A stretch of DNA of 39,345 nt from UHGV virus genome UHGV-1828728, one strand, 5' to 3'. The position numbers and the translations under genes were made by a program. Below, in pieces: positions 15,682-18,718 of this stretch. Each line of letters begins with the position of its first letter. The stretch's first letter is position 1. The notes under the pieces were generated by a model that saw only the letters and a program-made list of their open reading frames with translations, ran no database searches and was not told the DNA's origin. The DNA comes from a virus.

Positions 15682-16713
15682 CTAATCGCCATCTTCCAGC
15701 AGGCGCACCATTGCCCCTGTTTCACTATCCAGGTTACGGATATAGTTCATGACAATATTTACGTTGGTCCAGCCACCAGCTTGCATGATCTCCGGTATTG
15801 AAACTCCGGCGCGGGCCATATCTCGCGCGGCTCCGACACGGGCACTGTGTCCAGACCAGGCCAGGTACCTCTGACCAGAGTCATCCTTAGCCCCGTAAAT
15901 CAATCGGTGAGTTGCTTCAAAAATCCCTTCCAGGGCGCGAGTTGATAGCTGGCTGGTGGATGATGGCGAGGCAACACCATTTTTTCTGACCCGGCAAAAC
16001 AAGTAGTTATTCGGATCATCAGCCACACCAGAGACGGAAATCCATCGCTCGACCAGTTTAGTTACCCCCAGGCTAAGTGCCTTCTCTACACCTGCGGTGC
16101 TAACCAGCGTTTTCGTTCTGCCAATATGGATTAACATTCTCCCACCGTCAGTACGTGAGATATCTTTAACCCTGATCCTGGCAATTTCGGCTATACGTAA
16201 CAGGGTGTTATAAGCAATCCCCAGAAATGCCAGATTCCGTATATCCTGGCAGCGATCGCTATTTCCCATGAGTGAACGAACCTGGTCGAAATCAGTGCGT
16301 TCGAACGCCAGCGCCTGTTTTGCACGCTCACCGGCATCAACGTTTTCTTTTCGGATCCGTCGCATGACCAGTGAAACAGCATTGCTGTCACTTGGTCGTG
16401 GCAGCCCGGACCGACGATGAAGCATATTTAGCTGGCCCAAATGTTGCTGGATAGTTTTCACTGCCAGACCGCGCGCCTGAAGATATAGAAGATAATCGCG
16501 AACATCTTCAGGTTCTGCGGGAAACCATTTCCGGTTATTCAACTTGCACCATGCCGCCCATGACCGGCAAACGGACAGAAGCATTTTCCAGGTATGCTCA
16601 GAAAACGCCTGGCGATCCCTGAACATGTCCATCAGGTTCTTGCGAACCTCATCACTCGTTGCATCGACCGGTAATGCAGGCAAATTTTGGTGTACGGTCA
16701 GTAAATTGGACAT
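15682..16713 (-). CDS. cre: Cre tyrosine recombinase
   Basis: 343-aa product beginning MSNLLTVHQNLPALPVDATSDEVRKNLMDMFRDRQAFSEHTWKMLLSVCRSWAAWCKLNNRKWFPAEPEDVRDYLLYLQARGLAVKTIQQHLGQLNMLHRRSGLPRPSDSNAVSLVMRRIRKENVDAGERAKQALAFERTDFDQVRSLM and ending NIVMNYIRNLDSETGAMVRLLEDGD; matches canonical Cre from memory apart from a few substitutions. Confidence 0.97.
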   Translation of the reverse strand: MSNLLTVHQNLPALPVDATSDEVRKNLMDMFRDRQAFSEHTWKMLLSVCRSWAAWCKLNNRKWFPAEPEDVRDYLLYLQARGLAVKTIQQHLGQLNMLHRRSGLPRPSDSNAVSLVMRRIRKENVDAGERAKQALAFERTDFDQVRSLMGNSDRCQDIRNLAFLGIAYNTLLRIAEIARIRVKDISRTDGGRMLIHIGRTKTLVSTAGVEKALSLGVTKLVERWISVSGVADDPNNYLFCRVRKNGVASPSSTSQLSTRALEGIFEATHRLIYGAKDDSGQRYLAWSGHSARVGAARDMARAGVSIPEIMQAGGWTNVNIVMNYIRNLDSETGAMVRLLEDGD

Positions 16714-17131: not shown

Positions 17132-17165
17132 ATAACTTCGTATAATGTATGCTATACGAAGTTAT
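17132..17165. other. loxP: loxP recombination site
   Basis: Exact ATAACTTCGTATA-ATGTATGC-TATACGAAGTTAT (13-bp inverted repeats, 8-bp spacer). Confidence 0.97.
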
Positions 17166-17314: not shown

Positions 17315-17546
17315 TGCCGCCGTTTCGTAATACGACTTTGGATTCACTATTTAATGTGTCTTCAGCGTTGTAGAGCGGCTCAGAAGGAAATGAGCAAACA
17401 GGGAAACCTTATACAACGGCATTACAGCTATGCATTGCTCATCTTACACACAGCGCAATGTTGTTAGATTACCCCAGCATGGATCATGGGTGAAACAGTA
17501 GGTCAGAGCTTCAGGCTCTGTGTTGTCAATACAGTGAGGCATAATT

Positions 17547-17756
17547 ATGGCTTTCATTCCACCAACCATCGACGACGTTAGACATTGCTCTAACGCTTTA
17601 TCTGTAGACCCCGCCGAAACCGACGCTGCCCGCGCCATTGCTGAACACTACTCAAAGATATCCAATCAGGAGTACCGCATCACCCAAGACGACCTGGATG
17701 ATCTCACTGACACAATCGAATATCTCATGGCCACTAACCAGCCAGACTCACAATAA
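17547..17756 (+). CDS. coi: Coi (C1 inactivator)
   Basis: 69-aa ORF immediately upstream of c1 with ATG and GTGAGG SD; size and position match P1 coi. Confidence 0.8.
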   Translation: MAFIPPTIDDVRHCSNALSVDPAETDAARAIAEHYSKISNQEYRITQDDLDDLTDTIEYLMATNQPDSQ

Positions 17757-17772
17757 ATGCACTAATAAATCT
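17756..17772 (+). promoter_or_regulatory. degenerate C1 operator-like site between coi and c1
   Basis: AATGCACTAATAAATCT, 14/17 to consensus. Confidence 0.35.
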
Positions 17773-17866
17773 ATTATTTTCGTTGGATCCTTCTATAATG
17801 GTGGCCAACAACTCCCAGTGTAATCCGCTGTGAGTTGTTGGCCATGTCAATTCTGGAGGAGGATCA

Positions 17867-18718
17867 ATGATAAATTATGTCTACGGCGAACAACTGTACC
17901 AGGAGTTCGTCAGCTTCAGGGATCTCTTTCTAAAAAAAGCTGTTGCACGCGCCCAACACGTTGATGCCGCCAGCGACGGTCGTCCTGTTCGCCCGGTTGT
18001 CGTTCTGCCGTTCAAAGAAACGGACAGCATTCAGGCTGAAATTGATAAATGGACTTTAATGGCGCGGGAACTGGAACAGTACCCAGACCTCAATATCCCA
18101 AAGACTATTTTATATCCAGTGCCTAACATCCTTCGCGGTGTGCGTAAGGTTACGACTTATCAGACAGAAGCTGTGAACAGCGTCAACATGACCGCTGGCC
18201 GCATTATTCATCTGATTGATAAGGACATTCGCATCCAGAAAAGCGCAGGGATCAATGAGCACAGTGCGAAATACATAGAGAACCTGGAAGCAACAAAAGA
18301 GCTAATGAAGCAGTACCCGGAGGATGAAAAATTCCGTATGCGCGTACACGGCTTTAGCGAAACAATGCTGCGCGTCCATTACATTTCTAGTAGCCCTAAC
18401 TACAATGATGGTAAATCAGTTAGTTACCATGTGCCGCTATGTGGTGTGTTTATCTGCGATGAAACTCTCCGTGATGGAATTATCATCAACGGTGAATTCG
18501 AGAAAGCAAAATTTAGCCTTTATGACTCTATAGAACCGATCATCTGCGACCGCTGGCCGCAGGCAAAAATATATCGCCTGGCAGATATTGAAAATGTAAA
18601 AAAACAAATTGCCATCACTCGCGAAGAGAAAAAGGTCAAATCAGCCGCATCAGTTACGCGCAGCCGTAAAACTAAGAAGGGGCAGCCAGTAAACGACAAC
18701 CCCGAAAGCGCACAATAG
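17867..18718 (+). CDS. c1: C1 repressor of lysis
   Basis: 283-aa product beginning MINYVYGEQLYQEFVSFRDLFLKK; matches P1 C1 in sequence and length from memory; GGAGGAGG SD. Confidence 0.95.
   Translation: MINYVYGEQLYQEFVSFRDLFLKKAVARAQHVDAASDGRPVRPVVVLPFKETDSIQAEIDKWTLMARELEQYPDLNIPKTILYPVPNILRGVRKVTTYQTEAVNSVNMTAGRIIHLIDKDIRIQKSAGINEHSAKYIENLEATKELMKQYPEDEKFRMRVHGFSETMLRVHYISSSPNYNDGKSVSYHVPLCGVFICDETLRDGIIINGEFEKAKFSLYDSIEPIICDRWPQAKIYRLADIENVKKQIAITREEKKVKSAASVTRSRKTKKGQPVNDNPESAQ

Follow-up and report, generated by a model that had tools for sequence, protein, structure and literature searches.

The stretch of DNA analyzed here (39,345 nt in full, hereafter the window) carries a perfect inverted repeat a short distance upstream of c1, the gene for the repressor, and the question raised by this locus is whether the repeat acts as a transcription terminator, as a binding site for a protein or as a functional part of the c1 messenger RNA. 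The first-pass annotation had set these functions side by side, as attenuation of coi–c1 read-through, binding of a dimeric regulator and stabilization of the c1 mRNA. The comparative sequence analysis presented below suggests that the repeat is probably a small control element of the repressor mRNA rather than a terminator or a protein-binding site, and that, among the functions offered earlier, stabilization of the c1 mRNA is the preferred and a plausible candidate role.

The inverted repeat and its fold in the coi–c1 region

The window corresponds to phage P1, with the region 17500–17950 being 100% identical to NC_005856/AF234172, and the C1 that it encodes is the wild-type protein, sharing 99.6% identity with the reference c1.100 allele. 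The loxP site (17132–17165, with 13-bp arms ATAACTTCGTATA) and cre (15682–16713) were also located, as expected of P1. Transfer of the P1 reference annotation to the window, by adding 17148 to the coordinates of locus L001, placed on the + strand the upstream gene coi (17547–17756, with its stop codon at 17754–17756), the –35 (17770–17775) and –10 (TATAAT, 17794–17799) hexamers of the promoter Pc1, formerly P99a, and c1 itself (17867–18718). The bivalent C1 operator Oc1ab (Op99a,b), to which no strand is assigned, extends through 17756–17783, overlapping Pc1 and including a consensus match at 17756–17772. It has been reported that P1coi transcripts read through coi into c1 and that Pc1 is a further source of C1 (PMC8546580). 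Between the Pc1 –10 hexamer and the c1 start, no feature is annotated in the 535-feature P1 reference record, and no mention of the hairpin described below was found in the accessible literature; early immC papers may note the dyad in passing.

The repeat had been noted as 12 bp long, and its two arms, GGCCAACAACTC (17803–17814) and GAGTTGTTGGCC (17832–17843), were indeed found to be perfectly complementary and separated by a 17-nt gap. It is in fact longer than noted, as T17802 and A17844 extend it to 13 perfect bp, an inverted-repeat search giving a 5′ arm at 17802–17814, which holds the predicted Pc1 start window (17804–17807), and a 3′ arm at 17832–17844. The placement of the repeat between coi and c1 stands insofar as it lies downstream of the coi stop and upstream of the c1 ATG at 17867, but that description overlooked Pc1 in between: the repeat sits on the predicted Pc1 start site, its stem beginning 2 nt after the –10 hexamer.

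At the RNA level, the complete c1-leader hairpin (17801–17845, + strand) consists of 14 bp, a 1×1 C17815/U17831 mismatch and an apical portion (17816–17830) formed by the 5-bp stem CAGUG/CGCUG (17816–20/17826–30, including a U·G pair) and the loop UAAUC. Its minimum free energy of –31.5 kcal/mol corresponds to z = –8.0 to –8.8 and was equaled by none of 200 dinucleotide shuffles. The hairpin is followed by an A/U-rich single-stranded linker (GUCAAUUCU, 17846–17854), as read from the sequences, which leads to the c1 Shine–Dalgarno sequence (SD) GGAGGAGG and the start codon at 17867 (together 17855–17869). Across the 39-kb window, just three sites hold perfect inverted repeats of at least 12 bp with a loop of up to 40 nt, namely loxP, the c1-leader repeat and a pair of C1 operators.

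Several further candidates were inspected in the leader and set aside. Both arm and loop occur as a single copy in the window, for which reason a trans pairing partner or a repeated element was dropped. An alternative helix between the 3′ arm and c1 codons 7–10 (17885–17895) was taken as a coincidence, given that, by eye, the RCS47-type arm pairs poorly with the unchanged codons. On inspection, a sigma-70 pause element in the loop (TGTAAT) was likewise rejected, as its position 2 does not hold the critical A and the RCS47 type has no such sequence. A mini-ORF (17844–17870, ATG TCA ATT CTG GAG GAG GAT CAA TGA, encoding MSILEEDQ*) begins where the pairing of the hairpin ends, and its stop codon shares bases with the start of c1 (ATGA); this mini-ORF is without an SD, is found in P1/RCS47-type leaders only and is probably meaningless.

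Conservation and covariation among P1 relatives

The c1 upstream regions were gathered from phage records, plasmids, GTDB genomes, IMG/VR and, by protein search, contigs with divergent C1 clusters. A pattern scan of viral sequences added four loci to the sample, which comprises 111 loci with 30 distinct leaders; a pattern scan of metagenomes returned A/T-rich chance matches only and no C1 loci. A hairpin was found at the same position in all nine sampled lineages in which C1 is 71–100% identical to that of P1, including P1 itself, the RCS47 type, two Salmonella groups, the Klebsiella/Cronobacter JK004 lineage and three metagenomic lineages. These hairpins start 1–4 nt after the –10 hexamer, with energies between –19 and –31 kcal/mol and z-scores between –2.8 and –8.8. 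All nine lineages also keep the operator and a strong SD, their –10 hexamer is invariably TATAAT and lies 63–67 nt from the ATG, and an unpaired A/U-rich linker lies 3′ of the hairpin in every one, followed by the SD at a fixed distance.

The sequence of the hairpin, in turn, differs from lineage to lineage, as seen in the arms of P1 (GGCCAACAACUC/GAGUUGUUGGCC), the RCS47 type (GGUCAGUAAUG/CGUUAUUGACC), JK004 (ACAUUCCCCG/CGGGGGAUGU), L094 (GAUAUGGCAGUA/UACUGCCAUAUC) and L098 (AACGCACACCC/GGGUGUGCGUU), and the P7 hairpin shows a single difference from that of P1, at loop position 17825. The first-pass annotation had suggested checking P1 and its relatives for conservation of the repeat; what is conserved there is the fold, kept in nine of nine lineages with C1 at least 71% identical, and not the sequence of the arms, which varies. 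A more distant clade, with C1 53–59% identical, has a leader of 34–38 nt without this hairpin, which implies that C1-type switches can do without the element.

In that clade (L099–L102), we also observed a palindromic operator-like sequence (CTCTAAAAAAATCAATTTTTTAGAG), a –10 hexamer TACTAT, a weak stem in the short leader, with the SD inside it in two of three cases, and a divergently oriented HTH_3 gene upstream. The c1 gene calls of L095/L096 and L099/L100 run upstream to 304 and 294 aa, respectively, into the leader and hairpin, the true C1 start being located by alignment at the conserved M/V-V/I-N/D-Y motif. Additionally, GATC (Dam) sites lie at 17786–17789 in the Pc1 spacer and at 17862–17865 between the c1 SD and AUG, and GATC(C/T) is found just 5′ of the –10 hexamer in most lineages, including the distant clade; Pc1 may be methylation-sensitive.

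The hairpin is selected for shape, not for sequence. Leaders of the P1 and RCS47 types differ at 19 of 46 hairpin positions and retain the fold, with 94% of cells paired in this group versus 27–50% in slid controls; both sides have changed in five pairs, two pairs became G·U and the covariation score was matched by none of 500 shuffles. Pair 17805:17841 switches from C–G to U–A, and the U·G intermediate of this switch was found in both backgrounds (L078 and L068), while the 1×1 mismatch is closed in the L033 variant. Two more double compensations separate L096 from L098, the Salmonella lineages form their outer helices from different sequences and, in a plain MAFFT alignment of 16 leaders, compensatory changes were present in 9 of the 12 consensus pairs. 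A few single isolates (L052, L030 and L039) exhibit one broken pair each. Since a covariance model of the P1/RCS47 leaders reached distant lineages only with filters off, in an alignment that mixed minus-strand and spurious matches, pair counts and independent folds were used in place of the covariance-model alignment.

The substitutions also differ between the strands. Distinct G·U pairs outnumber A·C appositions in the stems by 16 to 2, and in 8 of 10 sequences the sense strand folds more stably than its antisense counterpart, the margin reaching 11 kcal/mol. As an A·C apposition corresponds to a G·U pair on the other strand, and a dyad bound as DNA by a dimer predicts no such bias, this pattern points to selection on the + strand RNA rather than on a DNA palindrome. 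The strong RNA structure proposed from the repeat alone is thus borne out by the compensatory changes among lineages with C1 at least 71% identical and by the G·U bias toward the + strand.

The extent of divergence between the two common alleles deserves separate consideration. Both are abundant, with about 335 P1-type and 343 RCS47-type plasmids by identity band and 47 and 39 sampled loci, respectively. Set against the 19 differing positions of the hairpin, the flanking 2 kb shows 1–4 differences per 50 nt, coi and c1 are ~98% identical and the third codon positions of c1 are 6.7% different. The opposite pattern is seen between L096 and L098, whose hairpins differ at 3 of 36 positions and whose third codon positions differ by 39%. 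Because of this reverse pattern, and of the ordinary hairpin polymorphism within each type, diversifying selection on the hairpin was rejected; we read the divergence as recombinational mosaicism surrounding a module in which neither arm can be exchanged without the other, which fits better. Past the c1 stop (window 18700 onward, compared with L010), the P1 and RCS47 types show 20–40 differences per 50 nt, and the RCS47-type locus L009 and a second locus, L013, each encode a PacB of only 90% identity, pointing to a recombination boundary between c1 and pacB.

Candidate roles of the hairpin

The position of the stem relative to the Pc1 start is central to any function in the c1 mRNA. The start window 17804–17807 was predicted from the annotated –10 hexamer and the usual spacing of 5–8 nt, and since the stem starts 2 nt past the –10 hexamer, the expected Pc1 start lies in the 5′ arm. 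A start at this predicted spacing would leave 0–3 unpaired nucleotides at the 5′ end in all nine lineages, with a remaining hairpin of –13 to –25 kcal/mol after truncation at the predicted start. Complete helices have 14–19 pairs versus 9–14 once truncated at +7, and the stem pairs at positions 1–6 after the –10 hexamer fall upstream of any plausible Pc1 start.

We tentatively favor the hairpin as a 5′-terminal element protecting the c1 mRNA initiated at Pc1, a reading that may well hold but that we stop short of calling probable, with the Pc1 start deduced from promoter spacing and the effect on decay from analogy. As the stem begins 1–4 nt past the –10 hexamer in every lineage, the Pc1 mRNA would begin inside the stem or flush with it, and its 5′ end would be base-paired. 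What defines the E. coli 5′ stem–loops that guard transcripts against RppH and 5′-end-dependent RNase E cleavage is a base-paired 5′ end, and stabilization by such stem–loops reportedly requires that no more than about 2–4 unpaired nucleotides precede them (Emory, Bouvet and Belasco 1992; Mackie 1998; Deana, Celesnik and Belasco 2008), a limit within which the c1 leaders would fall if Pc1 starts as predicted. The paired end would shield the c1 mRNA from this 5′-end-dependent decay, yielding a stable message from the weak, autorepressed Pc1. On the coi–c1 read-through RNA, the hairpin would be internal and may form a stability or processing barrier between the cistrons.

The closest counterpart of such a stabilizer is the hairpin hp1 in the 5′ UTR of E. 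coli ompA, which is said to act as a 5′-terminal stabilizer (Emory, Bouvet and Belasco 1992). The two leaders share a stable stem–loop, defined by structure, at most a few nucleotides from the 5′ end (for c1, the predicted one), together with an A/U-rich segment and an SD, and the precedence of structure over sequence that marks the ompA type is found here in the compensatory changes, the G·U intermediates and the nine independent folds. Unlike in ompA, however, the 5′ end of the c1 leader is a predicted one, and its helix reaches upstream of the likely start and is also internal in a polycistronic RNA.

A role confined to the Pc1 transcript leaves one observation unexplained, namely the covariation of at least one pair, 17805:17841, that lies upstream of the plausible Pc1 starts. 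Conserved and covarying pairs in that position imply that the complete helix matters in the P1coi RNA, and the main rival reading, conceivable though on the unlikely side, is that the hairpin discriminates between two classes of transcripts. Given that Pc1 starts within the stem, the full helix of 14–19 bp would be present only in the read-through imcAB–coi–c1 RNA from P1coi, which it would mark for a different fate. One option is an RNase III-type cleavage that splits coi from c1 and exposes c1 to decay; another, in P1, is the nucleation of an outer helix in which the SD and AUG of c1 are sequestered. The Pc1 mRNA would carry the truncated hairpin only, which would be harmless or protective. 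This reading accommodates the position of the stem, part of which necessarily lies upstream of the Pc1 start in all lineages, the difference in length between the full and the truncated helices and the retention of the outer pairs, which are kept even by the Salmonella lineages that build them from other sequences. It also agrees with the report that coi and c1 mRNA levels are separable (bioRxiv 10.64898/2025.12.28.696737). Against it, helices of this length are marginal as RNase III substrates, and the current P1 model takes c1 to be expressed from the read-through RNA (PMC8546580).

Comparison with processed transcripts places these helix lengths in context. RNase III sites typically comprise about two turns (~20 bp) of coaxial duplex RNA, in many cases interrupted by an internal loop, and the full-length RNA of the c1 leader offers 14–19 pairs plus a 1×1 mismatch or bulge, the longest being that of P1 (19 pairs plus the 1×1 mismatch) and those of the other lineages shorter. 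In the retroregulation of lambda int through sib and RNase III, the completeness of a hairpin likewise depends on the promoter or terminator that sets the transcript ends, as it would here, so that a single DNA element could deal differently with two classes of transcripts; sib, however, is an established RNase III site acting from the 3′ end, while the asymmetry of the c1 leader is at the 5′ end and its helix is borderline. The early RNase III sites of T7 and the REP hairpins of E. coli pap and mal, which give parts of an operon mRNA different stabilities, are also intercistronic and separate genes that need different amounts of product, as do coi (antirepressor) and c1 (repressor), but, unlike them, the c1-leader hairpin has an internal promoter directly before it and is not a repeated element.

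The outer helix was predicted in the P1 read-through RNA, in which the Pc1 spacer segment 17780–17794 pairs with 17857–17870 (SD and AUG) through 14 bp with one bulge; this spacer segment, a partner in the read-through RNA only, is best viewed as a doubtful accessory part. The mean probability of being unpaired from SD to AUG drops from 0.57 in the Pc1 RNA to 0.03 in the read-through RNA, a value as low as which was reached by none of 100 upstream shuffles. The occluding helix exceeds shuffled controls in only two of the nine lineages, P1 and L098, and is broken without compensation by G17785T together with T17791C in the RCS47 type and by G17785A in L030 and L086. As a general mechanism it therefore fails the comparative test, and it is left as a P1-specific possibility. 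The combined model, in which the full helix would silence or destabilize c1 on the coi–c1 RNA while the Pc1 mRNA keeps a short protective hairpin, appears to us rather unlikely; if it were true, a co-transcribed antirepressor and repressor would be uncoupled post-transcriptionally, in a 5′-end counterpart of lambda sib.

A function in the context of translation, in which the hairpin would lock the first 45 nt of the leader away from the ribosome-binding site and, together with the A/U-rich linker, keep a constantly accessible place for ribosomes to bind on either class of transcript, as an insulator or a standby site, is in our view decidedly unlikely. The unpaired A/U-rich linker and the strong SD at a fixed distance in all lineages fit such an arrangement, as do the SD and AUG, predicted to be mostly unpaired in the Pc1 RNA (0.38–0.61), and the complete lack of polymorphism at positions 17850–17949 among the 47 P1-type loci. 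Insulation, however, creates no need for the stem to adjoin the promoter, and the predicted accessibility of the SD is only moderate.

The proposed attenuation of coi–c1 read-through, in which the repeat would serve as an attenuator or intrinsic terminator, is disfavored, and we consider it very unlikely. The hairpin does share with intrinsic terminators a G+C-rich stem–loop located downstream of a gene, here between co-oriented genes, and in L098 a U-run (UUUAGUUUUUU) directly follows the stem. This U-run is confined to L098, being absent from its sister L096, and most lineages lack one; no U-tract follows the P1 stem, which leads directly into the linker sequence given above, and a terminator scan did not flag the hairpin. 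The reported expression of c1 from P1coi also speaks against attenuation (PMC8546580). The sole terminator-like call of the region, at 17576–17595 inside coi, overlaps the operator Oc1c (17584–17600), whose sequence most likely gives rise to it incidentally.

A DNA palindrome acting on Pc1, either as the site of a dimeric regulator or as a cruciform, would find a suitable substrate in the perfect 13-bp dyad over the promoter start region, yet we regard it as highly improbable. The half-site sequence of the arms is not conserved even though C1, its operators, the –10 hexamer and the SD are, the substitutions carry the RNA-like asymmetry described above and the arms occur as a single copy in the window. 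The C1 operators (Op99a–e/Oc1a–e) belong to the same immC control region by Pc1, but they are asymmetric 17-mers with the consensus ATTGCTCTAATAAATTT, of which the adjacent one is conserved while the hairpin sequence drifts. No match to this consensus with up to three mismatches was found in 17800–17846, compared with 11 such matches elsewhere in the window, Oc1a (17756–17772) among them. Regulator binding, the remaining function suggested for the repeat, is accordingly disfavored by unconserved arms, substitution asymmetry and the missing operator match alike. Elsewhere in the window, inverted C1-operator-like 17-mers at 33733–33749 (+) and 33782–33798 (–) flank a perfect 11-bp hairpin (AAAACGTGATG/CATCACGTTTT, 33746–33773), preceded by an A-run and followed by a T-run, which, judged by its sequence, looks like a bidirectional terminator between two operators; transferred to NC_005856, the segment 33733–33798 falls inside gene 26, and the window may not be colinear there.

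Finally, a chance or neutral palindrome is scarcely credible, for although about 9% of dinucleotide-shuffled windows hold a perfect 12-mer repeat of this kind somewhere (mean of 0.11 per shuffled window), the hairpin has been independently retained at one place in nine lineages, with compensatory changes.

Significance for the C1–Coi balance

The c1-leader hairpin is ordinary in type, resembling known 5′ UTR and intercistronic stem–loops, and lies outside the curated RNA families: its best matches in Rfam 15 scored 15–19 bits against thresholds of 33–100, with E-values of at least 2, and thus remained below the gathering threshold. Hundreds of P1-like phage-plasmids from Escherichia, Salmonella and Klebsiella carry it, and two of its alleles are common.

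The lysis–lysogeny decision of P1 rests on the ratio of C1, the repressor, to Coi, the antirepressor, both of which are carried on one P1coi transcript. Quantitative models of this decision express "free C1" as c1 mRNA minus coi mRNA (PMC8546580), an arithmetic which presumes that neither stability nor translation differs between the two transcript classes. If this assumption breaks down anywhere, the obvious candidate is a hairpin that is selected for its structure and located exactly at the point of difference between the c1 transcript classes.
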